Assembly: GCA_964016885.1 (NCBI GenBank)
Contig: OZ024750.1
Span: 20,336,001 to 20,400,000, forward strand
From: Eledone cirrhosa
Lineage: Eukaryota
DNA length: 64,000 bases
Direction: 5' to 3'
Shown here: positions 2,923 to 59,096 of the stretch, one piece after another
How the letters are laid out: each line of letters opens with the position of its first letter
How positions within the stretch are numbered: position 1 is the stretch's first letter
Position numbers and translations under genes: made by a program
Notes under the pieces: model-generated
Told to the model about the DNA's origin: nothing
Seen by the model: the letters and a program-made list of their open reading frames with translations, nothing else
Database searches by the model: none

Positions 2923-3110
2923 GGCGGTGGATTGGAGAATCGGTAGAGGGTGAGATGCCATGCTTTGCAGCATAGAGTTACGGCCCTTATGATCTGAGTT
3001 CAAATCCTGCCAAGGTTAACTTTGCCGTTCATCCTTACGGAGTCGATAAAATAAAGTACCAGTAATGCACTGGTATAATTTCTGGACTTGTGCCAAGAGT
3101 AGAAACAATT
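2923..3110 (+). mobile_element. tRNA-derived SINE, full length (~190 bp)
   Basis: A-box-like tggagaatcgg, B-box gagttcaaatcc, conserved core and (att)n tail; about 15 copies in the window. Confidence 0.92.
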
Positions 3111-3400: not shown

Positions 3401-3587
3401 GGCGGTGAATTGGCAGTATCGGTAGAGGGTTGGACGTCATGCTTTCTAGCATAGTTTCGTCCCTTTACGGTCTGAGTTCAAATCCCGCCGAGGTTAACTT
3501 TGCCTTTCATCCTTACGGGTTCGATAAAATAAAGTACCAGTAATGTACTGGGTAATTGCTGGCCTTGTGCCAAATGTAGAAACAATT
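3401..3587 (+). mobile_element. tRNA-derived SINE, full length
   Basis: A-box tggcagtatcgg, B-box gagttcaaatccc. Flanking 10-bp direct repeat atattatgta at 3362-3371 and 3588-3597. Confidence 0.92.
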
Positions 3588-4762
3588 ATATTATGTACTT
3601 GATTCTTTGAAACGTGTTTCCTAGAATTATCGTTTGGCAAATAAAAGCATTCTATTTACAAACACTTTAAAGATGAGAAAATGTATATTTGTGTACGTAC
3701 GCTTGTGTGCGTGTAAGGGTTCGTTTATGCCTTGCAGCCTAGAGATTCGAAACGAGAGATGAATAGTAGAACTGCGACACGCGGAAGAAATAAATGAGGT
3801 GGATATGATCGACTAAAATATTCGTAGGCGATGTTGACCCATGCCCATTTATATCCATATATGTAAACACCCACACATGCGCGTGTGCGTATGATTATGA
3901 GGGCAAAATACAAGTTTTGTTATTAATCGGCTATTCAAACCTTTCTCTAATGTTACTATACTATATATTTTGTGTTTACTTTATATTCCTAGTTCAGAAT
4001 ATTTCTACACTGTCCTGTAAATAACTGTCATGCAGTTTGCATAACTCTTTCCTAATTATAAATGCCTTATATTTATGATTCATACTAAAGATTATGAAAT
4101 ATTCATAGCGTTCTACAGGTGTGATTGATATGAGGTAGTAGCAGTAAATTCTAATATATTATCAATTGTCATAGAGCTGTCTTAGGAATTGCAGATTATT
4201 TCATACAAGAAATCTCTCCCTCACTCTATTCTCTGTATAATATAAAACGAAGGGAAGATGAAAATTGGAAAACGAAATGAAAATTAGAGAAAGACGGAGA
4301 ATATGATTTGGTGCCTGTTTCCTCAACGTGACCAATGAAGCTTCCGCTTCAAATGCAATATTCTTAGTAGTAGCTTATTATCGGGCATATTTTTCTGACG
4401 ATTATTCATAGACGTGGTAGCATTTATTGGTAGTATATAACCAAAACCAATTTTAAACTAACAAGAGGAAAGGTGTCAAGATTTTACAAGATAGTGTAAG
4501 ATGAAATGGGATAGAAAGAGATTGGGTGAGATGTATTCTGAAATATAATGTAAAAGGAAAGAAAATCTTCAAATGGGAGAAATTAGTGATAAGATGATAT
4601 TGTTGGTTTCGCTCATATGAGTATTTTCTTTGTTCGTTATATTATTTTCTTTGATAGATTTCACTAAAGAACACATACAAATATACTCTTCATTATTGTA
4701 AACCAATATATACGTATAACAGTTTGGTCTAACTGCCAACGTCAGCAGTAGTATAGTAGTAA

Positions 4763-6696: not shown

Positions 6697-6839
6697 CACA
6701 TAGAGTTAAAGCCCTTGCCATTCTGAGTTCAAATCCCGCCGAGGTTAACTTTGCCTTTCATCTTTGTGGGGTTGATAAAATAAAGTACCAGTAATACGCT
6801 GAGATATTTGCCGGTTTTGTGTCAAAATAAGAAACAATT
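6697..6839 (+). mobile_element. tRNA-derived SINE, partial
   Basis: ctgagttcaaatcccgccgaggttaactttgcctttcatc core. Confidence 0.85.
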
Positions 6840-7678
6840 ATATAGTAGGTCGTTACCAATCAATACCAGTAAAATACACACACACGCATCAACTGAAAAA
6901 AAAAAAAATTTAAATGTATGTTACATATATATACCTATAAGTGTAACGAATAAATATCATGATGTATTTTTTTTAAGTCTCTGTAGCGTTGGCTATATGT
7001 TGAATGACATACAGTAACACACACACACTCATGTGTTATCCACACTTGCTGACAAACTTGCATTTCAAATTCCCCGTCTACTTGTCTATATTTCACAAGC
7101 AAACACACACACAGATACACACTCCTCTCTCGCTCCCCCTCTCTCTCTATCTCCCTCTTTCCCTATCTAACTCTCTCTCAACAACTGCAACATGTTGTTT
7201 TTTCTTGAAACAAATTTTAATTCAATTCTTGATATATAAACTTCCATTCGTATGAATTGCAGAAAAAAAAAAGACTTTCAAAATATATTTTATATTAGAT
7301 CGTAAAATTATTTTTATGAATAAAAACTACTAAAAATGTATGAGAACAAATGTTACTCAAGACTAAGTGCAAAGTCTAACGAAAGAAGAAATCATGTCGT
7401 TTCAGGTTATCATCTATTATGTATTCCATAATATATAGTTTGTCTGTGAAAACGGGAAAAACAGAAATCCATACATTGGGAGAATAACATATAATTTATT
7501 CTAGTTGGCCCTTTATACCAGTAATTAGGAAACCATAAGATTCGGGAGATAATTCATATATGAGTAACGATAATTCATGTATGTATGTATCTATGTATGT
7601 ACACATATATATATATACACATACACGCTCACAAACACACAGACACACACTGGTACACAAAGACAATCATTTATAGGC

Positions 7679-10206: not shown

Positions 10207-10810
10207 GTCAGGTCACCACTTGGTGCTACTGGTAACCTGTATCCCAGTGCAACCTGTCACATGGTCGGGTCGTTGGCGACTAAACTGGAAACCCCACTAA
10301 GGTTTATTGGTGAGGAGGGTGACTTTGGACATCCTGCAGGACTAAAAGCAAAACCTGTCAAACGGCAAAGGAGCTCTTAAGAGTCAATGGCCATCCAAAA
10401 TTACCGGGAGAGATGACCCCTTAGCCTTTGTCAAGGCAGAATTCTAGAAGAAGGAAAACTCTGATATAACACCTGCAACACTGATGGTATCCAATGATGT
10501 TGACTTGTTCTTCTTTTTGGTAAATATCATCTTGGTTAAGAGAGTGGGACTGGCTTTGTGCAGTGCCTGTGCTCACTATAAAAGCTTCACGGCACAGGCA
10601 TTGCTTTATATCTGGAAATCTCTCTGCACTTGTCGTCACATAGTACCATGGGCCTAGCACTATGTGTCAATAATTGTCACATGTGTAGTGTTTGTACCAG
10701 AGTTTTCAAGTCGCTGGCTGGACTAAGGTCACATTCGTTCAGCGCATCGGTAGGAGTTCTCCTACATGGATATAAAGTAGTGGCCATACTCGAAAACGAG
10801 TTGGCAGCCA

Positions 10811-10812
<2 letters not shown>
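10207..10812 (+). mobile_element. Non-autonomous RTE-clade derivative (5'UTR-like part fused to ORF 3' end)
   Basis: Encodes [17 protein letters not shown] (10684-10734), like the C-terminal CxxC..GL.SH finger of RTE ORFs. It has a terminal stem-loop ctcg-aaaa-cgag and a second copy at 11390-11944. Confidence 0.65.
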
Positions 10813-11389
<577 letters not shown>

Positions 11390-11944
11390 GGTGGCTGCCA
11401 ACTCGTTTTCGGGTACCGCCACTACTTTATATCCATGTAGGAGAACCCCTACCGATGCGCTGAACAAGTGTGACTTTTTAGTCCAACCAGAGACTTGAAA
11501 AGTCTGGTACAAACACTACACTTGTGACAATTATTGACACATAGTGCTGGACCCATGGTACCATGTGAAGTCAAGTGCAGAGAGATCTCCAGATATAAAG
11601 CAATGCCTGTGCCGTGAAGCTTTTATAGTGAGCACAGGCACTGCACAAAGCCAGTCACACTCTCTTAACCAATATGATATTTACCAAAAAGAAGAACAAG
11701 TGAACATCATTGGATACCATCAGGGTTGCAGGTGTTATATCAGAGTTTTCCTTCTCCTAGAATTCTGCCTTGATAAAGGCTAAGGGGTCATCTCTCCCGG
11801 TGATTTTGGATGGCCATTGACTCTTAAGAGCTCCTTTGCCCTTTGACAGGTTTTGTTTTTAGTCCGGCAGGATGTCCAAAGTCACCCTCCTCACCAAGTA
11901 ACCTTGGTGGGGTTGCCAGTTTAGTCGCCAACGAGCCGACCATG
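11390..11944 (-). mobile_element. Second, inverted, slightly 5'-truncated copy of the RTE derivative
   Basis: Reverse complement of 10260-10812 with scattered substitutions. ORFs 10421-10660(-) and 11544-11783(+) are near-identical translations. Confidence 0.85.
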
Positions 11945-17582: not shown

Positions 17583-17806
17583 AGTAATAATAATAAATTT
17601 GAAGACTAAAATCCAAAGAGGGCTCGATAAGGATAAATATATATCAAATATATAAGAACCGTAGAGCAAATATTTATTAAAATAACAGATTAAAGTTTAA
17701 GCAAAGAATCGCATGCTTTCACCCTTAACGGGATCTTCAGAAGATCCCGTTAAGAGTGAAAGCAGCGATTCTTTGCTTAAACTTTGATCTGTTATTTTAA
17801 TAAATA
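17583..17806 (-). mobile_element. Fold-back element family E (tail + palindrome centred at 17739, hammerhead-like core)
   Basis: Palindrome ~17672-17806. Minus strand CTGAAGA-TCCCGTTAAGGGT-GAAA. Other full copies at 26605-26823 and 58882-59100. Confidence 0.8.
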
Positions 17807-19235: not shown

Positions 19236-19238
<3 letters not shown>

Positions 19239-19688
19239 GATATTAAATAAATGGAAACTATATTTATAAAACCATATTTATTTCATTATATATATTTCAG
19301 GGATATCATATTAACAATATGCTATGCCTTCCTCAGACAAAATACAATATAAACAGTTTTATAGATAAATAGATTTGACATACTGTACAACATCGACTTG
19401 TATTTGAAAAGTTGAATTGCCAATTCAACTTTTCAAATACAAGTCGATGTTGTACGGTATGTCAAATCTATTTATCTATAAAACTGTTTATATTGTATTT
19501 TGTCTGAGGAAGGCATAGCATATTGTTAATATGATATCCCTGAAATATATATAATGAAATAAATATGGTTTTATAAATATAGTTTCCATTTATTTAATAT
19601 CGTAAATATTATCCAAATACTTGTCGAGTGCTTTTATATCAGTTATAAATATTTACTAGTTGTAACCCAACAATTTAAATATAACTTT

Positions 19689-21023: not shown

Positions 21024-21197
21024 GTATCGGTAGAGGGTCGGACGCCATGCTTTCCAGCATAGTTACGTCCCTTTATGATCTGAGTTCAAATCCCGCCGAG
21101 GTTGACTTTGCCTTTCATCCTTACGGGGTCGATAAAATAAAGTACCAGTAATGCACTGGGTAATTTGCTGGCCTTATGCCTAAAGTAGAAACAATTA
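21024..21197 (+). mobile_element. tRNA-derived SINE
   Basis: Core and tail match the family. Confidence 0.9.
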
Positions 21198-21225
21198 TTT
21201 AAGTTTTGGTCTTCTATATACTTAA

Positions 21226-21372
21226 ATAATTGTTTCTACTTTTGGCACAAGGCCAGCAATTATCCCTGTGTATTATTGGTACTTTATGTTATTGGACCCC
21301 ATAAGGATGAAAGACAAAGTTAGCCTCGGCGGGATTTGAAATTAGACCGTAAAGGACCGTAACTCTATGCTA
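21226..21372 (-). mobile_element. tRNA-derived SINE, inverted
   Basis: Reverse complement of the core; mirror of 21376-21511. Confidence 0.88.
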
Positions 21373-21375
21373 CAA

Positions 21376-21511
21376 AGTAGAATTACGATCCCTTACGGTT
21401 CAAATCCCGCCGGGGTTAACTTTGCTTTCATCCTTATGCGGTCGATAAAATAAAGTACCAGTAATACACAGGGATAATTGCTGGCCTTGTGCCAAAAGTA
21501 GAAACAATTAT
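21376..21511 (+). mobile_element. tRNA-derived SINE, partial
   Basis: gttcaaatcccgcc core and gtagaaacaatt tail. Confidence 0.88.
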
Positions 21512-21992
21512 TTAAGTATATAGAAGATCGAGAATATTCTCGACAGAATCTGGAATCATGATGCAGAGAATGGGAACCACTCTACTTCCCGTTGAAATAA
21601 AGCTGCTAAATCATCTAATTTTGTCTGGATATGGTAACTTTCCATTTCAATTTAAAATATCCTCTTCTGATTCTGTGTGCTAATGGTGCTTACGCACCCA
21701 CAATTTGATATAACAATAAGCATGTTTTATCATTATACCTATCTATATATCTATTCATATTCTGATGGTAACATTTTCAAAAAATCTGCTATGTAGGAGA
21801 CGTTATTTTGCTTTCATTTCCTCATACCTTATCCATTTCTTTCATCTCCTTAATTTTTTTCCTCTTCTGAATTTACTAACAATTCTTCCCTTCCTGTTCT
21901 TCTTAGATTATCTGCTGTTAGGCTGAGAGAAGCGAGAGCCTGCGTGTGAGAAATAGTCTGTGCGAGAGAGAGGGAGTGTGTGTTTGTTTGTA

Positions 21993-25161: not shown

Positions 25162-26151
25162 GATTTCTTTTATTTGCCACTAGGGCATCAAAAGTGGGAC
25201 AAGTACAAAGGGGGGAGTTTACACAAAAAGGCGTCCTCAATAAGGAGGAGGCAATAACAAAATATAAAAATAAAATAAGATATAACAAAAAATAAAATTT
25301 TTAACAAAATCCTCAATAGAGAGGAGGCGCCTTGGGGGGTCGCACACACCCCCGAAAAAAGTGTGCAACCCTTCTCCTCAGGAGCACAGAGAAGGGGTGC
25401 TCCCTTGGTCTTTCATCTTCCTCACCTATAGTCTGATGTAGAGTGAAGGCCCATTCACACAGGCCATTCTCGCCACTTTCACCCATCTTTCATAGAAACG
25501 GCTGGGGTGCAGCACCTCTCTCTCCATCCTGATCCTTCTTCCGAAATGATATCGGAAGAAACGGACCAGTTGTTGGCCAGAGAGAAAGGTGCCCGACCTC
25601 AGTCCTTTCAGACGCGTCCACCATACAACCTCTTTCGCCATGGCTATTACGCACAGAAACACCGCCTCTGCTTCATCTTTGAAGGGGGGAGGCGGCTTGA
25701 TCATTACAATAGACTCGGTGGTCAACCGGATCGGTCCCACCCTTGACAGCAGTTGTTCGACATAGCCCCACAGATCGGCTACGCCCGAGCAGTGTACTAA
25801 TGCGTGTGCAACGGTTTCCTCGTCGCACACGCATCTGGGACAGATCTTTTTGGCGGGGTCCCTACCCGGGCGCCCGTGTCTGTAGAGCCTTTCTCGAACG
25901 GGTAAAGCCCCTCGGTAGCACTGCCAGGCCAGGGACTTCTGGAAGTTGTCCATAGGTCCCGGGCTGAATGTCCTACCGAACAGGCTGGCCAGTTCGTCCT
26001 CCTCCATGTCTAGGGCTTCTCCGAGGGCGTCGTCGCACCTGCTGCGTACCAGCCCTCTATAGAATGTTGCGGTGGAGTCTCCACTGATAACCGGATCCGC
26101 CTGCCAGAGGGCGGTGAGCGCCTGGGCACACTCAGTGTGCCAGGCGCCCAG
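25162..26151 (-). mobile_element. 5'-truncated Tx1/L1-clade LINE (ORF2 C-terminus + 3'UTR) inserted in (TA)n
   Basis: GC-rich island. Open frame with CPRCVCDEETVAHALVHC (zf-RVT CCHC). AATAAA near the 3' end; TA repeats on both sides. Confidence 0.88.
25426..26151 (-). CDS. Partial LINE ORF2 C-terminus with zf-RVT zinc knuckle (no true start)
   Basis: About 241 uninterrupted codons with LPVRERL..CPRC..EETVAHALVHC..W motif. The ORF-track start lies beyond the flanking TA repeat. Confidence 0.8.
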   Translation of the reverse strand: MGAWHTECAQALTALWQADPVISGDSTATFYRGLVRSRCDDALGEALDMEEDELASLFGRTFSPGPMDNFQKSLAWQCYRGALPVRERLYRHGRPGRDPAKKICPRCVCDEETVAHALVHCSGVADLWGYVEQLLSRVGPIRLTTESIVMIKPPPPFKDEAEAVFLCVIAMAKEVVWWTRLKGLRSGTFLSGQQLVRFFRYHFGRRIRMEREVLHPSRFYERWVKVARMACVNGPSLYIRL

Positions 26152-26408
26152 TATATATATATATATAGGCAAAATGATTAATGAAAAAGTTACAAGCCAT
26201 TAAAACATATCTTTATGAAGCTTGTAACTCTTTCAACTCTTTCATTAATCATTGTGCCTATCACCCTCTATTTATCCTTGTACACTAAATATTAACCTCC
26301 TCTAACATTTAAACCTGATAACCCATGCATGGGGCACTTATGCACCCGCTGTTCTTTCTATCCTCTTTTACGATACTGTAACTTTATATATATATATATA
26401 TAGTAATA

Positions 26409-26590
26409 ATTGTTTCTACTTTTTGGCACAAGGCCAGCAATTACTCAGTGCATTACTGGTACTTTATTTTATCGACCCGGTAAGGATGAAAGGCAAAGTC
26501 AACCTCAGGGGGATTTGAACTCAGATCGTTGAGGCACGTAACTATGCTGGAAAGCATGGCATCCGACACTCTACCGATACTGCCAATCCA
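26409..26590 (-). mobile_element. tRNA-derived SINE, full length
   Basis: Reverse complement of A-box, B-box, core and tail. Confidence 0.92.
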
Positions 26591-26604
26591 TATATATATA
26601 TATA

Positions 26605-26823
26605 GTATTAATAATAAATTTGAAGACTAAAATCCAAAGAGGGCTCGATAAGGACAAATATATATCAGATATATAAGAACCGTAGAGCAAATATTTACTA
26701 AAATAACAGATTACATGTTAAGCAAAGAATCGATGCGTTCACTCTTAACGGGATCTTCTGAAGATCTGTTAAGGGTGAAAGCAGCGATTGTTTGCTTCAA
26801 CTTTAATCTGTTATTTCAATAAA
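26605..26823 (-). mobile_element. Fold-back element family E copy
   Basis: Collinear with 17583-17806; centre gatcttc-t-gaagatc at 26759. Confidence 0.85.
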
Positions 26824-26847
26824 TATATATATATATATATATAATAT

Positions 26848-27272
26848 AAGATCAAAAGATGGTTAAAGGAGTTCCATGTATTTTATTATGCGCATTTCAA
26901 AAACAAACATCATCATGCAATAATATTTGTGTTTTCATCAGATAAAACAGGAGAACATGATATGAAGGCTAAAAAACACTTGTGGATAGTGCAGTTTTAA
27001 ATCAACATATCAACATATATGTTGATTTAAAACTGCACTATCCACAAGTGTTTTTTAGCCTTCATATCATGTTCTCCTGTTTTATCTGATGAAAACACAA
27101 ATATTATTGCATGATGATGTTTGTTTTTGAAATGCGCATAATAAAATACATGGAACTCCTTTAACCATCTTTTGATCTTCTATTATGTATACTCCAGTCC
27201 TACAAACTGTAGAGTGCTTCTTATCCGATATCTGCATTGCTTTATTGTACTACAATAAAACTCACCTCCTAC

Positions 27273-28359: not shown

Positions 28360-28628
28360 ATTACGGGGTCGATAAAAATAAAGTACCAGTAATGCACTGG
28401 TTAATTGGTGGCCTTGTGCCTAAAGTAGAAACAACTATTACTATGGTGGATTGGCAGGATCGGTAGAGGGTCAGACGCCATGCTTTGCAGCACAGTTAAT
28501 TCCCTTTACGAACTGAGTTCAAATCCCGCCGAGGTTAAGTTTGCCTTTCATCCTTACGGGGTCGATAAAATAAAGTACCAGTACTGTACTGGGTAATTTC
28601 TGGCCTTGTGCCAAAAGTAGAAACAATT
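28360..28628 (+). mobile_element. Tandem SINEs (3' fragment 28360-28438 + full copy 28445-28628)
   Basis: Two successive core/tail matches. Confidence 0.9.
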
Positions 28629-28861
28629 ATTAATATGCTTTTTGGACTATTTCAACAAAATATGTTTGATTGTGTGTGAATCAGCAGTCTAAAGAGCAGA
28701 TCAATAATTGAATCATGTCAATAATTTGTGTGGATGACATTGAGCCAATTATCTGCTAAAGATGCGTGACATATCGATACACAATAAGAAAACTAAATGC
28801 ACGTAAACGAAAGTGCATAGTCATTCTTAATATATAAAGTGTGTCGGCGCATCTATTGCTG

Positions 28862-29205: not shown

Positions 29206-29393
29206 GGCGGTGGATTGGCAGTATCCGTAGAGGTTCGGACGCCATGCTTTGACGCATAGAGTTACGGCCCTTGCCATTCTGAGTTCAAATCCCGCCGAGG
29301 TTAACTTTGCCTTTCATCCTTACGGGGTCGATAAAATAAAGTGCCAGTAATGTACTGGGAATTTCTGGCCTTGTGCCAATAGTAGAAACAATT
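29206..29393 (+). mobile_element. tRNA-derived SINE, full length
   Basis: A-box, B-box, core and tail all present. Confidence 0.92.
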
Positions 29394-29758
29394 ATACTGT
29401 TTTTCAACAAGGTCGTCTTGTTTTCAATTTAAGAATATAAAAGGGAGGCAGTATTTACTTATTCTTGTAAACTAGCATATTTAAGACTTCAAATATATGT
29501 TTACATTTGTTTCAGTGTGAGAGTAACCAATAACAATTTTCCCAAATTGAATTTTGGTTAAATTTCTAGAAAATTGATATTTACATGGAAACTGTTTCTA
29601 ATATAAGGAAAAGAGTCATTCATAAAATGCATTATTTACATAAAACAGACAAATTCTCTATGAGTTTTAGGTATTGACTATATATCACTTACTTAGTGTC
29701 GGCAAAAACAAACGGAAGCAACTGACAGATGTTTCTCGTTTGTTAACGGTTATATATA

Positions 29759-30198: not shown

Positions 30199-30579
30199 AA
30201 ATTGAGGTTGGTAATGGCACATGGAATATATAAGAGACAGAATACTTTTTTGTGAAAAAACATAATTTTATAAGGTAAGGAAATAATAAAGGGTATAAAA
30301 AATGACCGGTTTCGATGGGTCTGCAAAAGCCATCTTTTCAAATGTTGATTAATATTAAGAAAAATTAATAATACGAAGAGTTAAAATTTGAGACTTGAAA
30401 ATTCAAGTATAAAATTCATTGTGGGATTTCATAGCAGTTTTCATCTAGGTAGCAACAACAGGTTGACTGCTGTGTCCCTTTCTGGTAGTGAATGAGAAGT
30501 TATTTGGGGTGTGGGTTATTTTATAAAGGTCAGATTTAGCAATAGCCAGCTGCTGGTCAGTGAGGGGGTGGAAGCAATA

Positions 30580-35235: not shown

Positions 35236-35240
<5 letters not shown>

Positions 35241-35666
35241 TTCAAAATATTAACAAAATAGATATTCTTGTGATCAATTATATTTTATTATACATATTTC
35301 AGCGGTACCGAGTTAGTTCAACAATACTGTCCTCATCAGATAAAATAACATGATGCATGACATACCCTGACATAGTAGATGGTTAAGATTCAGTCATGGT
35401 AGTCTACTATGCCTGAATCTTAACCATCTACTATGTCAGGGTATGCCATACATCATCTTATTTTATCTGATGGGGACGTACTGTTGAACTTAACTCAGTA
35501 CCTCTGAAATATGTATAATAAAATATAATTGATCACAAGAATATCTATTTTGTTAATATTTTGAATTAATATTAATAACTGTGGAAAACATTTCTATGCT
35601 GAGTGCTTCCAATCTATTGTGAAACTCATTCTTTGATGTATTCATTGAACCTTGTTTAACCTTTAA

Positions 35667-42062: not shown

Positions 42063-42509
42063 TATATATTGGTAAACGGAATAGAAAATGCTGACAAATT
42101 GTTCACAGTTGAAAAATGGTTTAATTAGGAATAAAAGAGTAATAGTGATTGTATGGGTTAGTATTCAGTTGTGGTTTTAAGTTTTTAAGTTTTTACCGGT
42201 TGCGCATTTCTAAATGCTTTTCAAAAATAATTTTGAGATTGAGTGTCCGTGCTATTTGCTCTGAGCAAACAGATCAGAGCAAACAGCACGGACACTCAAT
42301 CTCAAAATTATTTTTGAAAAACATTTAGAAATGCGCAACCGGTAAAAACTTAAAAAACTTAAAACCACAACTGAATACTAACCCATACAATCACTAATAC
42401 TCTTTTATTCCTAATTAAACCATTTTTCAACTGTGAACAATTTGTCAGCATTTTCTATTCCGTTTACCAATATATAATAACTCGTGTGTTACACCTCTAT
42501 TCTTTTAAC
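42063..42509 (+). mobile_element. Fold-back element family G: ~200-bp palindrome + tail
   Basis: 42063-42264 vs 42274-42476. Core TTGAAAA-(G/A)CATTT-ag-AAATGC-GCAA-CCGG-TA. Confidence 0.88.
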
Positions 42510-43614
42510 TATATATATATATATATATATATTCTAATTCTTACTTTCGACAAGACAATATAAATTACATTAAGTAAACATTTTCAGCATTCCGGAAAAG
42601 AAGCTGGTGTGTATTTCTGAAGCTGCCAACGTAGAAACAATACCTTAACCAATAAAATAAATTATAAGCATAGGCAAGAGCATGCAATTTAATGTGTGCT
42701 CCTAATTAACAACTGTACAGTACTATGTATTCAGGAATGGGCATTAATTAAATAACAATTACATTATTTAATAAATTTTAATTAAGGGAGGCATATTATA
42801 CAAAAACTGCTTGTATTACATATAAATATGTCGTATATTGTACGTTTGTTTAATATATTTCATTTTTATTTGTATAAACAACTGTAAAAAATATGGTGTA
42901 TTAATATACAAATATCTTCATTACCTTTAGGATCGGAAACAATATATCAATATAAAAGAAAGTTCTGTGTTTACAAAAATGGAATATTTATGTAGGCTTA
43001 CATATACTTTCAGAATAAAAAAATATATTTGTTTGGTAATTAAATAGTGTATTTCTTGAATGTATAAAGATAAGAAATCCCCACGCAAAAAAATAAACAG
43101 CGTTTTAATTGAACCTGTATAACTGCGAAAGTGACATATTTAAATATGAGTTGAAATAGAAATGATCATATTCTCGATCATAAATATTTGGCCCATGAAG
43201 TTTCTTTGCTCAGCGATGTGAGTTAATGTCACCCAAAGATAGCCGATTGTATCAGTAGAAAATATAGTCTTATATGGTGATCAATACTACTGACATTAAG
43301 TTGAAGCACTACCAAAGCTTTTGTAGTTAAATTCTCATTAGCCTCCTTCAATATGATAGCATTGTATCCCTTAACATTGGCATATTACATCGTAAATTTC
43401 ATACAGAGTATGGTGGAGCGGGGTGTATCATGTCAACACGAAGAGAAATAACACGTTCTGAATGTTTTCTTAATACTATCCATAAACACTCATGGTCTAT
43501 GGGCATTCACTCTTCTATTCATATTCATATGTGACGTGCGTTAATTTATCCTGCGTATTCAGTAGAGGTGAATTTGTAAAGTCATTAAATCACAGAGGTA
43601 AAGTTAGCTTTCAT

Positions 43615-43929
43615 TATTTTGAGTTCAAATCCCGCCGAGGTTATCTTTGTCTTTCATCCTTATGGGGTCGATAAAGTAAAGCACCAGTAATATACAGGGG
43701 TAATTTCTGGCCTTGTGCCCAAAGTAGAAACATTTATTTTTAGTGGTTTGGCACTATCGGTAGAGGGTCGGACGCTATGCTTTGTAGCAAAGAGTTACGG
43801 CCACTTATGGTCTGAGTTGAAATCCCTCCGAGGTTTACTTTGTCTGTCATCCTTACTAGGTCGATAAAATAAAGTAGAAGTAATGTAGTGGAATACTTGC
43901 TGGCCTTGTGCCAAAAAGTAGAAACAATT
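43615..43929 (+). mobile_element. Tandem SINEs (43615-43733 and 43744-43929)
   Basis: Two core/tail matches. Confidence 0.88.
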
Positions 43930-44389
43930 ATTTTGAGGTAAAAATATAAAGCATTACGTCATTACTAGCCTCGCTTCTTAATGATTATCCTTCTCTAACT
44001 ACTTATTTCTCCTCTGTGGTCAGACCTGAGGAGAGGGACGATAGGATACCTACGTCTCGAAAATTTAGTGTTCTTGGATAGAAGTACGGAAATTGAAAAG
44101 TACGAACATGTGTGTGATGAAGCAATATCCTACCCTAAGGCTTGAGAAAGATTTTTCTATGCAGAACTACAGTGGCTGGTTGTTAGCTTCATCTAATTGC
44201 CTCATTATCCATAACTATTTCCCAGAAATTGTACTTCAGTATGTGTCTTTTAACATGCTGAAAAGTGAATCTTCAGTTTTTTAACCACAAATCATATACC
44301 GATTAAGAGGTTTTCCATGACATCTCAAATCCTTATTTTTCTTCTTCGCACACTTATTCCCGAGAGAGTCAATGAGACAGAGTCCTCAA

Positions 44390-47114: not shown

Positions 47115-49374
47115 AGGGTGTGTGTATGTGTGTATGTGTGTGTGTGTATATATATATAAGCCGTTAGAAACCTATTATTTACTTATTTCTGCGACATTCT
47201 GAAGGGGATCGGCTTGGCTTGGGTTTGATATTTCTTAGAATCAACTTCATAAATTCCCTGCATATTTCATAAACCGAAGAAAATTACCAAATTCATGGCC
47301 TTATAATTCAATCAATTGCGCCAGAAACAGTGAACTGAATGTGACAAGTTATTTATTATTATACTTAGAAGATTGAATGCAATAAACGTTGACCCCGTGT
47401 AAATTCCGCGATATTAATGTGAAACAACCATCATGTATTAAACATATATGTGACATTTTAATTATTGTGTGTATAAGTTACGTGTGTACACATAAATAAT
47501 ATAATCATCCCAGATTATAACAAAATAAACATTGCAGTTAAGACAACTGGTTGTTTCTCTCACGCATAAACATATTCTTACCACCCCCCTTTCTACAATG
47601 ACTTGTTACCGTATGGGATTAAATATTTATTCATGTGTCGAGCCTGCCACCACCAATCACACTCTACCAAATACACCTACCAACATCTTTCCATGAAAAA
47701 ATGATAGACTTGGATAAAAACATACATCATCACCCCAAACATACTCATCACCAGATTTCCAAAGTGGCCAACTTTCTACATGAAATATTAAACAACTTTA
47801 ATATAATACATCGATAATACCATTATCCTTTCATTTTACAAATGTAACATGGCTCCGAGTCAGATATTTAACGTGCACATCTGCCAACTCTTGATAAGAC
47901 TCACTTACAACAGCTATTCAATACATTGTATGGGTTCTGTAGATGTCTTCATAATTATGTATCCTCACCCCACAAAAGCTTTTTAAATGCTACAATGTTA
48001 TGTAAGCATGTTTCTATTGTGTTTCAGTCCTGATTTCTTTCGTGATGTAACCACTTTTATATTTTTGTGTTTTAGATGCACTCTATATGGATCAATCCTT
48101 TGTAGAACATTATTTTTGTATGCACGTGTGCGGGTATGACGAACAAAAAGTCTCTATTCAAAACTCAATATTACTGTTTTGTGATGCAAATGTTGCTTTT
48201 TAATATTTGCTCTGTTTTATTTTAGTTTTTTTATTCCTCACACGAGAATCCTATACATCTATCTGATGATATTTTTATCCGAATTTCGTGACTCTTGTTA
48301 TTTTGCTTGTTGGATCCCTTTTTCTCCTTAAATCATCTTACGTTGTGATTCCCATAGCAGAGTGTAATATGTTTATTTGACTGGTATTGTCAACTTTAAA
48401 ACCATCTAAATTATGATAGAAAAAAATCTAGTGTATTTCGTGTAAAACGTCGGTCATGTCTCTATTTTTACTAACATGTTATTGGAACAATGATCAACTA
48501 TTTCTCCTTTCTCCTATACTACGGGCCGTCTCACCCATGTAAGTCGTGTTCCTATTCCTACACCGCCCCCGCACATCTTATACTATACACTAAGCTTCTA
48601 ATTTTGCAGTTAATTTGAGGAATTAATTGGCAGACAATATATTTTCTATCAGTGCAGGGAGTTTTCGCAAAACAGGTATGGCACAAGGAATATTCTTTGG
48701 TGAAATAGACATTTTGAATAAAATACAGAAGTAGTAATATGAAAATGAAAATAAATGAAGTGAAAAATGTATCTACATATTTATTGGTAGTAGAACGAAA
48801 GAGATCAGAATTACAAAGAAAAGCCATGCAAAAAAATGACCAAGACATTTGGATAATTCAATAGAATATGCATTATATATCACATTGATGAAGATTGACT
48901 TCTAAATGTTTTGTGATGCAGAAAATTAGATTCTAACCTTATAGTTTACCATACTATCACACACATTTATGTAAGCACACATATGTTCGAATGTGCAGAA
49001 CAAACGCCGTGTTCCCATATATATATATATATATATATATATATGGGGCGGGGAGTGTGTGTGTTTGTAAGCGTGTGTGTGTTTGTAAGCTATTGTAAAA
49101 AATGACATTTTTTATGTGCAGGTCATATTAATGCTACATATATATAGGAGAAGTTATATATAAGGTTATATTCTTAAATCCCTCTAAATGGAAAAGAGAT
49201 GTCGAATGATGTACATGGGAGTCGGCTTTCCGGATGATTTCCTACGAATGAAACAGTTCTAGTCCCATTGAAGCCATTTCTATATTAAATATGTATATTT
49301 TGCTATGTAGTGAGTACCTTACTTACTGTGGTTACCGCCGATTGAACCCGGCATACATACACACACATACGCAA

Positions 49375-49406
<32 letters not shown>

Positions 49407-49420
49407 ACACACACTCACAC

Positions 49421-49478
<58 letters not shown>

Positions 49479-49479
49479 T

Positions 49480-49831
49480 AGAAAGTGAGGTTTTTTTTAC
49501 AAAATGAAAAATAACCGAGGTGTCCTACACGAGTGAAAGTATAAAGAAAAAGAGATGAAATCGAAAATGCAACTGGAGTCTTATTTTTTTTAAAAATATA
49601 TATATTTATTTGGTTCCTTTACCGGTTTCGCAGTTCTTCTGCTTTTCAAAAGGTGAGTTGAGATGGAGGGTCTGTGGATTTTCTCACAGATGTGAGAAAA
49701 ACAACAGACCCTCCATCTCAACTCACCTTTTGAAAAGCAGAAGAACTGCGAAAACGGTAAAGGAACCAAATAAATATATATATTTTAAAAAAAATAAGAC
49801 TCCAGTTGCATTTTCGATTTCATCTCTTTTT

Positions 49832-49838
<7 letters not shown>
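49480..49838 (-). mobile_element. Fold-back element family F: ~149-bp palindrome + tail on the left
   Basis: 49540-49688 vs 49691-49838; tail 49480-49539; (TA)n on both sides. Confidence 0.9.
49616..49653 (-). ncRNA. Variant (U3-A8) minimal hammerhead motif (mirror copy 49726-49763, plus strand)
   Basis: CCTT-TTGAAAA-GCAG-aagaa-CTGC-GAAA-CCGG-TA-AAGG: all three helices pair; GUA site. Confidence 0.78.
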
Positions 49839-49873
<35 letters not shown>

Positions 49874-49885
49874 ATATATATACAT

Positions 49886-49969
<84 letters not shown>

Positions 49970-55618: not shown

Positions 55619-56053
55619 TGATGTTGTCTGTGTGTGTGTGGCCTCATCTTTTCAAAGTCTATACAAATCCACATTGACTTCAAACTTGCATTTATATAGG
55701 CCTTGCGGTCTAACGATATTAACTGCAGCTTATATTTTCAATTTTCTGTTGTTAAAGGGGTGTTAGACGCCAGTTATCCATCTCAGTCGCGCTCTTATAA
55801 TATATGTCTGTATGCCTGCTGTCTGCATTACGACATTCTGACAAACATTGATGACGTATTATGTTCGCTATTATCCTTTCATTGCCAGGGAACGTCTTCA
55901 CGAACCACAGTATCGTCTTCCTGTTTACCTTCGGTTGCAACGATTTTCGAAATATTTCCTTCTGCGTTCATAGATTGATGCTTTTAGTTTGAGCTGATGC
56001 CGTTAAGGGTGAAAGCAACGATTCTTTGCTTAAGCTTTAATCTGATATTTTAA

Positions 56054-56762
56054 TCTATATATGCATATATATATAAAACTGAGGAAGTATGTATGTATGT
56101 ATGTATGTATGTATGTATGTATGTATGTATGTATGTATGTATGTATGTATGTATGTATGTATGTATGTGTGTGTGTGTGTATGAAACGCGACGTACCCAA
56201 CCAATCTTTTTCAAACTTTACATGTGTATTACTTATATTTCAGGGAGTTTTATGCACATGAAAAATTCTACTTTTTGATCCCTTAGGTGAAAAACTGCGT
56301 TCTTTTCCAGCTTTTTATAGATTTTTTTAGGCTTTACGTGAGACCGATTTCCTTGAATTTGTAACTATGTATTAGCCAGTCTCTTTATCATACAGTGAGC
56401 AAAGAAAATTCAACTTTTTTAAGGCCTAGGGCCCATATTAGCTGGAAAACTTCAATTTTTTCAGCTTTTTATGGTTTTTCTGAGGTGTTACATCTAGCCG
56501 ATTACCCCGAAATTTCAAGGTAATCGGCTAGATGTAACAAGCAATAAGAAAATTCATTTTCCTGATTCCCTAGGGCCCGCATTAGGTGAAAACCTGCTTT
56601 TTCCTGCTTCATCGAGAAAAATCTTAGATTACCCAGTCATCAGAATATTCGGTTTATTTTCTTTACATATTGTCCAGGCATGCAGTTTTTCCAGGATTAG
56701 GTCTGTTGGCGGCCCGCGTTCCAAAATACCTTATCCCGTGCAACGCCGGGTACCACTGCTAG
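56054..56762 (+). mobile_element. Non-autonomous Helitron (~710 bp)
   Basis: A|TC start, 5' (TATG)n tract, internal subrepeats (tagggccc..attag), subterminal hairpin cccg-tgcaacgc-cggg, CTAG|T end, no TSD. Confidence 0.85.
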
Positions 56763-56953: not shown

Positions 56954-57394
56954 CGTGTGTGTGCGCGTGTGCTATGTTTGTGAGTGTGTGTGTATATAAA
57001 GAAAGTCGTCAAGTGCAGGAATGCTAAACATAGCTTTAAAAATGTGGCGAACACCCTTAAAGAACGGAAATTGCCATCGACCGCTATGAGGAATTGGAAC
57101 CCATATCTTCCGGATACCGACACAGGTTGGCTCAAGAATTCAGGAAACTCACTTTTCCAGATTGCTGGTCTTGATTAATATGAATTAGTGGGCTTTCTTC
57201 AAGAACACGTTTCATCGTTCCAAGATAGTGGACTCTTACCCATATATTATAAAAAGTAAGCCTCATAACTTCACATTTAACTATGATATCTGGGATAAAT
57301 CTCAACCATTCAATTAAGCAGTGTCTTATTAATAAGTTTGTAGTATTTATGTCTTCAAAATAGGGAACGTAAAAACGGAATTAGACTACAAATA

Positions 57395-57531
57395 ATTGTT
57401 TCTAGTTTTTGGCACAAGGCCAGCAAATATTCCAGTACATTACTGGTACTTTATTTTATCGACCCCGTAAGGATGAAAGGCAAAGTTAACCTCGGCGGGA
57501 ATTGAACTCAGATCGTAAAGAGACGTAACTA
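57395..57531 (-). mobile_element. tRNA-derived SINE, partial
   Basis: Reverse complement of core and tail. Confidence 0.9.
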
Positions 57532-57900
57532 TAAATAATAACAAGATTTTAGTGCCTAAATTCCCAATGTGGATACTACATTTTTCCCTGTTTCAAAATA
57601 CATTGGTTTGGCGATGTTTGATTATTTGTATATTGTCTTTATTCCAGAATTTAAGCTGAGTAATTCAAACACACGCATATATGATAGAAATATAACAACA
57701 CGTGTCAGCAGTTTTTTCATATCCAAACACATTTTGCAAAGGATAATTACGTTATTTTTTTCTTTTCAGAATGAATATTCAGGTGTGTGTATATATCTAA
57801 GAACAGCAGCAGAAACTCACACCAACACACACACAAATATATATATATTTATTTATATATTGTTTGTGTGTGGATGTATCTGTAGAAGTTCTTGTGAGTA

Positions 57901-58881: not shown

Positions 58882-59096
58882 ATTTATTAAAATAACAGAT
58901 TAAAGTTTAAGCAAAGAATCGCTGCTTTCACCCTTAACGGGAGTTTCAGAAGATCCTGTTAAGGGTGAAATTAGCGATTATTTGCTTAAACTTTAATCTG
59001 TTATTTTAATAAATATTTGCTCTACGGTTCTTATATATTTGATATATATTTATCCTTATCGAGCCCTCTTTGGATTTTAGTCTTCAAATTTATTAT

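Follow-up and report, generated by a model that had tools for sequence, protein, structure and literature searches.

The closest described systems to the locus analysed here are Penelope-like elements (PLEs). PLE insertions carry a signature consisting of an inverted 5'-truncated copy, an optional tail of 30-40 bp at one end, and a bias towards (TA)n (PMC8557442). Head-to-head copies in PLEs have junction palindromes, which have been read as self-priming (PMC3846280), and the tail is the stretch between two start sites of the reverse transcriptase (RT) (PMC11167929), with the published tails overlapping the start of the ORF (PMC11167929; PMC3846280). The minimal hammerhead motifs of PLEs show no activity as monomers and little as dimers (PMC4209133; PMC6765202), and pairs of minimal hammerheads can lie on opposite strands 100-700 bp apart (PMC4209133). 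In Anolis, cleavage by the PLE motif required the protein of the element, and hammerhead mutants were without effect on insertion in vitro (PMC11167929); the cellular role of PLE hammerheads is described as an open question (PMC8557442; PMC11167929).

The U3-A8 variant of the hammerhead core is already published and is not new. Natural U3-A8 covariation, together with earlier in vitro activity, was reported in 2011 (PMC3088659), and Cervera and de la Pena (2014) described U3-A8 in the Cercyon PLEs of Schistosoma mansoni, with ~1,300 descriptor matches and a supplement that, in its machine-read PDF text, includes UUGAAAA as the core of one PLE-linked motif (PMC4209133). A literature search combining U3-A8 with hammerhead matched only PMC4209133, and separate searches found no report of such motifs in octopus. 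The original prediction for the locus treated the Watson-Crick pair between positions 3 and 8 as established and U3-A8 as a tolerated variant, which agrees with the published work (PMC3884650; PMC3088659), and the novelty that it implied for the U3-A8 class does not hold, since both the variant and a descriptor for it had been published (PMC4209133). Its suggestion that the class is under-annotated stands in part: a search limited to CUGANGA, a descriptor in published use (PMC8557442), does miss the motif, but none of the C3-G8 motifs in the window (the whole stretch of 64,000 nucleotides that was analysed) was detected by Rfam either, and U3-A8 is therefore no special case.

The tailed palindrome compared with Penelope-like elements

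The element at 49480-49838 is likely, with good confidence, a 5'-truncated fold-back insertion of a PLE pLTR, which inherited the known U3-A8 minimal hammerhead and whose present copy is predicted to be catalytically silent. Its two arms form a 299-bp palindrome (49540-49838) in which 145 of the 149 aligned bases are identical, with four mismatches and one gap in a T run, and this alignment bears out the earlier description of a palindrome with its tail on the side of the minus-strand motif (Table 1). Three of the four mismatches lie at the centre or no more than 14 bp from it, and the fourth (49625/49754) falls inside the ribozyme motif. Three features of a truncated pLTR insertion are found here, namely a head-to-head copy with a junction palindrome, a tail at one end and (TA)n on both flanks, within which a target duplication is unreadable. 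At least 10 short palindromes in the window share this layout of inverted arms, one-sided tail and TA flank. The tail also contains a short stem-loop motif in common with the element at 42069-42510.

Table 1. Positions of the tailed palindrome, its hammerhead motifs and the related U3-A8 motifs in the window
Feature	Positions	Strand	Remarks
Left-flank (TA)n tract	49456-49478		Likely insertion target
One-sided tail, 60 bp	49480-49539	-	Beyond the palindrome, on one side only
Tail-bearing arm, 150 nt	49540-49689	-	Likely truncated pLTR, reading outward from the centre
Complete minimal type I hammerhead motif	49653-49616	-	U3-A8 core
Junction hairpin	49679-49700		Perfect 10-bp arms, 2-nt centre, two flanking mismatches
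Mirror arm, 149 nt	49690-49838	+	Inverted, tail-less copy ending in (TA)n
Mirror hammerhead motif	49726-49763	+	One base off: C15.2 to A at 49754 (AACGGU)
Right-flank (TA)n tract	49839-49868
Related tailed palindrome	42069-42510		402-bp palindrome (96%) plus tail; U3-A8 in both arms
Third U3-A8 motif	30299-30346	-	Single copy, GUC triplet, 5-bp helix II

The junction hairpin is likely the fold-back (self-priming) site. In the proposed sequence of events, the RT of the parent element would start at the tail end, copy ~210 nt, fold back at the junction hairpin, recopy the arm and stop short of the tail, and the mirror arm would have acquired its helix III change at or after this duplication. By eye, the start of the tail (49495-49560, minus strand) holds a stretch rich in pyrimidines that ends in TAG and resembles a 3' splice site, and introns are frequent in pLTRs.

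Endonuclease-bearing PLEs (Penelope/Poseidon, Neptune and Hydra) have the same head-to-head copy, junction palindrome and one-sided tail, as well as an AT-rich or (TA)n target and a hammerhead in the repeat (PMC8557442; PMC3846280; PMC11167929), but the copy studied here (of family F) has lost its coding part. Against the assignment to PLEs stand the length of its tail, which is 60 bp rather than the 30-40 bp in print, and a tail-bearing strand without an ATG. None of the 184 non-microsatellite frames of at least 55 aa in the window was an RT or GIY-YIG frame linked to the palindrome, and the same scan yielded one zf-RVT match (25429-26199) and two sub-threshold matches; an autonomous PLE with an RT plus GIY-YIG ORF, and hence the parent element, was not found within the window. 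The non-LTR retrozymes of animals are likewise short, non-coding and PLE-related with a type I hammerhead (PMC7229834; bioRxiv 10.64898/2026.07.22.740005), but they are head-to-tail tandem repeats, whereas family F is a head-to-head palindrome with a minimal motif, and its only close second copy is inverted.

Read base by base, the minus-strand motif is the U3-A8 hammerhead that had been assigned to the tail-bearing strand. Helix I is formed by CCUU (49653-49650) and AAGG (49619-49616) over 4 bp, and the core UUGAAAA places U3 at 49649 and A8 at 49644. Helix II (GCAG/CUGC, 4 bp) is closed by a 5-nt loop AAGAA and followed by GAAA, and the self-complementary ACCGGU spans 15.1-16.1, with A17 at 49620 in a GUA cleavage triplet, so that the cut is predicted after A17, between 49620 and 49619. 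The strand thus holds the hammerhead core features of a Watson-Crick 3-8 pair, GAAA and a UH site, together with a G10.1-C11.1 opening of helix II and a short helix I. The single helix III change claimed for the mirror arm is also present; it breaks the palindrome that would serve dimer formation, which is intact in the tail-bearing arm, and weakens its self-duplex to -1.5 from -8.3 kcal/mol for ACCGGU. By all the sequence tests run, the motif is a minimal PLE-type hammerhead motif.

The minimal hammerheads of Schistosoma share with family F the type I topology, the short helix I, G10.1-C11.1, the palindromic helix III region, U3-A8 and the occurrence singly or on opposite strands (PMC4209133). 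Family F differs from them in having no extra nucleotide between A9 and helix II, in a helix II of 4 bp instead of 7-8 bp, in a six-base ACCGGU where the minimal form has four bases, and in A17, where the listed Schistosoma UUGAAAA example has U at 17 in the machine-read PDF text (PMC4209133). The natural U3-A8 variants of the 2011 report have the same compensated 3-8 pair and were active in vitro there, but the family F motif is of the minimal dimer type, with no helix I-II tertiary contact recognised (PMC3088659). The locus extends U3-A8 PLE hammerheads to another animal lineage.

Related motifs and the predicted catalytic state

Two further U3-A8 insertions occur in the window. The palindrome at 42069-42510 resembles family F beyond the motif (local score 81 against a shuffle maximum of 53), and the likeness of the 30-kb motif (30341, minus strand) to family F does not rise above shuffles outside the motif (37 against a maximum of 56). 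In a by-register table of the three insertions (49 kb, 42 kb and 30 kb; five arms), helix II changes in pairs (GCAG/CUGC, GCAUU/AAUGC, GAUGG/CCAUC), and helix I, which has 4 bp in family F, has 3 bp in the 42-kb element and contains one mismatch in the 30-kb motif. U3-A8 is kept in all five arms, and G10.1-C11.1 and ACCGGU each in four; two arms, both in the 42-kb element, carry GCAA in place of GAAA, and one arm of that element has A10.1. Such paired helix changes with a kept core point, on sequence comparison, to a selected motif, with selection on the fold. The conservation across copies expected in the original prediction thus holds within the window for these three insertions only.

Among 18 hand-picked cores from palindromic or tailed elements in the window, 13 are C3-G8 (four of them with doubtful helices) and five are U3-A8, with no mixed pair. 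C3-G8 and U3-A8 families side by side in 64 kb offer a natural covariation set for the 3-8 pair, and the U3-A8/A17, U3-A8/C17 and GCAA forms make up a small test series for PLE hammerhead function.

Predicted folding places the motif of the present copy in a different structure from that of the ribozyme. The whole element on the minus strand gives -237.5 kcal/mol as one hairpin versus -174.0 kcal/mol with helices I and II enforced, so that for read-through RNA the single hairpin is predicted to be favoured over the ribozyme fold by ~63 kcal/mol. The probability of helix I is at most 0.01 in all five longer contexts folded. The isolated motif reaches probabilities of 0.94 for helix II and 0.75-0.79 for helix I, and 0.0 for helix III as a monomer; this last value and the lack of an Rfam model match set it apart from a canonical hammerhead. 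The 49480-49838 copy is therefore predicted by these models to be catalytically silent, because its two motifs lie on opposite strands and RNA crossing the centre would make the antisense arm first. Such RNA, from either strand, would fold into one hairpin of ~145 bp hiding the motif, and there is no same-strand partner motif nearby. The earlier description of the hammerhead as intact, where it stands for active, is overstated on these grounds: the motif is of the minimal dimer type without a same-strand partner, the hairpin of the palindrome is predicted to enclose it, and its U3 is predicted to be mispaired with A17. If transcribed, the palindromic copy would be a likelier source of double-stranded RNA than of cleavage.

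The parent element may have behaved differently. The two-copy complex reaches -20 to -22.5 kcal/mol versus -7.5 kcal/mol per monomer, and as helix III is predicted not to form in the monomer and ACCGGU can pair with a second copy, dimer formation would be open to a parent RNA with tandem repeats. There, as the published relatives suggest, ACCGGU would join two motifs of the same strand, with slow cutting after GUA that would probably be helped by the element's protein.

The same origin could also apply to a U3-A8 lineage that is catalytically dead even in the parent, as a decaying relic or as a protein-binding or folding signal; this reading is possible, if doubtful. Changes at A13 are harmful to the hammerhead, and the GCAA at 42 kb points to relaxed selection in the U3-A8 lineage; since GCAA is found in both arms, the template of this insertion probably carried the damaged core already. 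A dead lineage is also favoured by the predicted pairing of U3 with A17 (probability 0.61 for the isolated motif and 0.49 for the mirror motif), by the Anolis insertion in vitro that hammerhead mutants left unaffected (PMC11167929), and by the weakness of published minimal motifs even as dimers (PMC4209133). However, across three divergent insertions both positions of the 3-8 pair have changed jointly, helix II shows covariation and ACCGGU persists, and U3-A8 ribozymes have been reported as active in vitro (PMC3088659). Apart from this comparison, the damaged 42-kb core fits reports that PLE insertion does not need cleavage.

The pairing of U3 with A17 follows from a U at position 3 combined with an A kept at the cleavage site, which allows helix I to be extended. 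The C3-A17 probability was 0.00 in the three C3-G8 neighbours folded. At 42 kb a different fold prevails and U3-A17 has a probability of 0.01, and in the 30-kb motif position 17 is C. The predicted pairing in family F mirrors the inhibitory C3-G17 trap, which was proposed to explain the poor activity of G17 minimal hammerheads (PMC3884650). It could reflect a safety catch or, in line with the GCAA at 42 kb, a crippled lineage. On the safety-catch reading, which is unlikely, the lineage would have exchanged C3-G8 for U3-A8 with A17 retained, and the U3-A17 pair would block the ribozyme unless a dimer forms or the protein of the element releases it; if true, the NUH rule for U3-A8 cores would be altered, with A disfavoured and not only G. 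A literature search for U3-A17 with hammerhead gave no match, but U3-A8 or A17 variants may already be described by Lunse, Weinberg and Breaker (RNA Biol 14:1499, 2017).

An active locus, in which transcription from near the centre frees the minus-strand motif and a dimer cuts in trans with RNAs of other copies, is improbable. All core positions are present, the ACCGGU self-duplex and the two-copy complex are both favourable, the family is abundant, and pLTRs can hold promoters (PMC6765202; PMC3846280). However, a single arm folded from centre to tail gives a helix I probability of 0.01, the centre is only ~35 nt away from helix I, and in a study of one PLE no RNA ends were found at the site (PMC11167929).

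Copies in public data, mobility and chance matches

Family F is abundant in public data, as judged from matches to the tail and outer arm. The counts cover this region in four of 21 sequencing runs (shares below 0.2 were not used), and amount to 2,410 contig pieces (run X1) and 1,980 reads (run X19) in organism A and to 30 and 7 pieces in organisms B and C, where read or contig depth is not equivalent to copy number. Tail-less ends running into (TA)n were found at 49540 (55 contigs in X1, 69 reads in X19, and one contig each in X4 and X5) and at 49544 (14 contigs in X1, 168 reads in X19, and one contig in X5). The end points of copies in these reads and contigs lie at about 49491, 49496, 49507, 49517, 49540 and 49544, and ends into (TA)n were seen in three organisms.

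Movement of the palindrome as a MITE-like or fold-back DNA unit targeting TA, with the hammerhead as a passenger from PLE ancestry, is quite improbable. Near-perfect inverted arms and TA flanks would fit such a unit, as would the nearly identical centre shared by three palindromes of another family (17671, 26694 and 58883), but the tail is one-sided, copies end at several places (49491 to 49544), the related 30-kb motif has no mirror arm, and several unrelated families in the window share the layout.

The search with a descriptor allowing U3-A8, which the original prediction had proposed, recovered the motif. Using a type I hammerhead with positions 3 and 8 left free over the 64-kb window, two matches were obtained, the family F motif and one case with an unpaired C3/C8, and 20 block-wise dinucleotide shuffles gave a mean of 0.05 U3-A8 matches, with 0 at the strict level. 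A pattern fitted afterwards to the motif gave five matches versus 0 in 100 shuffles, a result that is favourable because of the fitting. At the Rfam gathering score, no family, hammerhead included, was matched in the whole window, and at E<=10 the region 49400-49900 gave 45 sub-threshold matches, none of them a hammerhead and most of them miRNA hairpin models, reflecting the palindrome. A chance match in AT-rich DNA is scarcely credible, for although the predicted fold of the isolated motif does not stand out from those of shuffles (z -0.66) and a bacterial coding frame (L020) holds a look-alike with both helices, shuffled windows gave only 0.05 matches each, three insertions have paired helix changes, and the motif is placed and oriented like the C3-G8 hammerheads of the neighbouring palindromes.

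Matches in the metagenome, viral and prokaryotic collections are chance only, and no family F copy was found in the prokaryotic or viral collections scanned. All 34 metagenome matches to the family-derived pattern were rejected, 33 of them lacking both helices; the other, a U3-A8 look-alike with both helices at 3996-4041 of L020, is antisense within an 864-aa bacterial coding frame, the translation of which reads by eye like what we take to be a helicase. This look-alike illustrates how relaxed descriptors yield false positives. Similarly, two matches in viral contigs were rejected (one without helices and one antisense within a 405-aa frame), a family-specific 22-mer had 0 matches in viral contigs, and 10 matches to a 19-mer in prokaryotic genomes were rejected, none extending beyond 26 bp.

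Other features of the window

C3-G8 minimal motifs with a palindromic helix III were noted at 19238-19602, 26844-27183, 35237-35569, 58755 (plus strand), 41960 (minus strand) and 46126 (plus strand), in tailed palindromes or single copies mostly adjoining (TA)n, and several distinct PLE-like families occur within the 64 kb. One family has three palindromes with near-identical centres (17671-17806, 26694-26823 and 58883-59013) and a partial copy (55986-56064); the shared centre falls on a CTGAAGA core, as a fold-back hotspot or through spread as a unit. The hexamer GAGTRC is found in six of the 12 tail stretches listed (after 12701, 19602, 27183 and 35569, before 24789, and at 49290-49350), against an expectation of ~0.01 per 60 nt, and the tails of the U3-A8 group carry ACCTC in its place. 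GAGTRC may serve as a conserved signal for recognition by the RT.

The window is rich in AT, at 25-41% GC per 2 kb, and densely filled with (TA)n tracts, (CA)n tracts and short repeats. ARAGORN gave 0 tRNA genes in the window, and a bacterial promoter scan gave 0 sites, with a model that is not applicable to this DNA; the window looks like invertebrate non-coding DNA without a clear host gene. The 257-aa frame with a zf-RVT domain (25429-26199, minus strand; E 4.6e-6) is the 3' part of a LINE-type element and unrelated to the palindrome. In addition, an inverted pair (10260-10811 and 11391-11944; ~550 bp, 94% alike) lies round a microsatellite, with a weak C2H2 zinc-finger match in one arm. 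A dispersed SINE-like repeat, with copies ~80-90% alike, occurs at 2569-2697, 2963-3107, 3465-3597, 6699-6844 and 21081-21527, and further copies occur at 26397-26588, 28449-28637, 29247-29396, 43616-43937 and 57385-57533; it presumably resembles the tRNA-derived SINEs of octopods.
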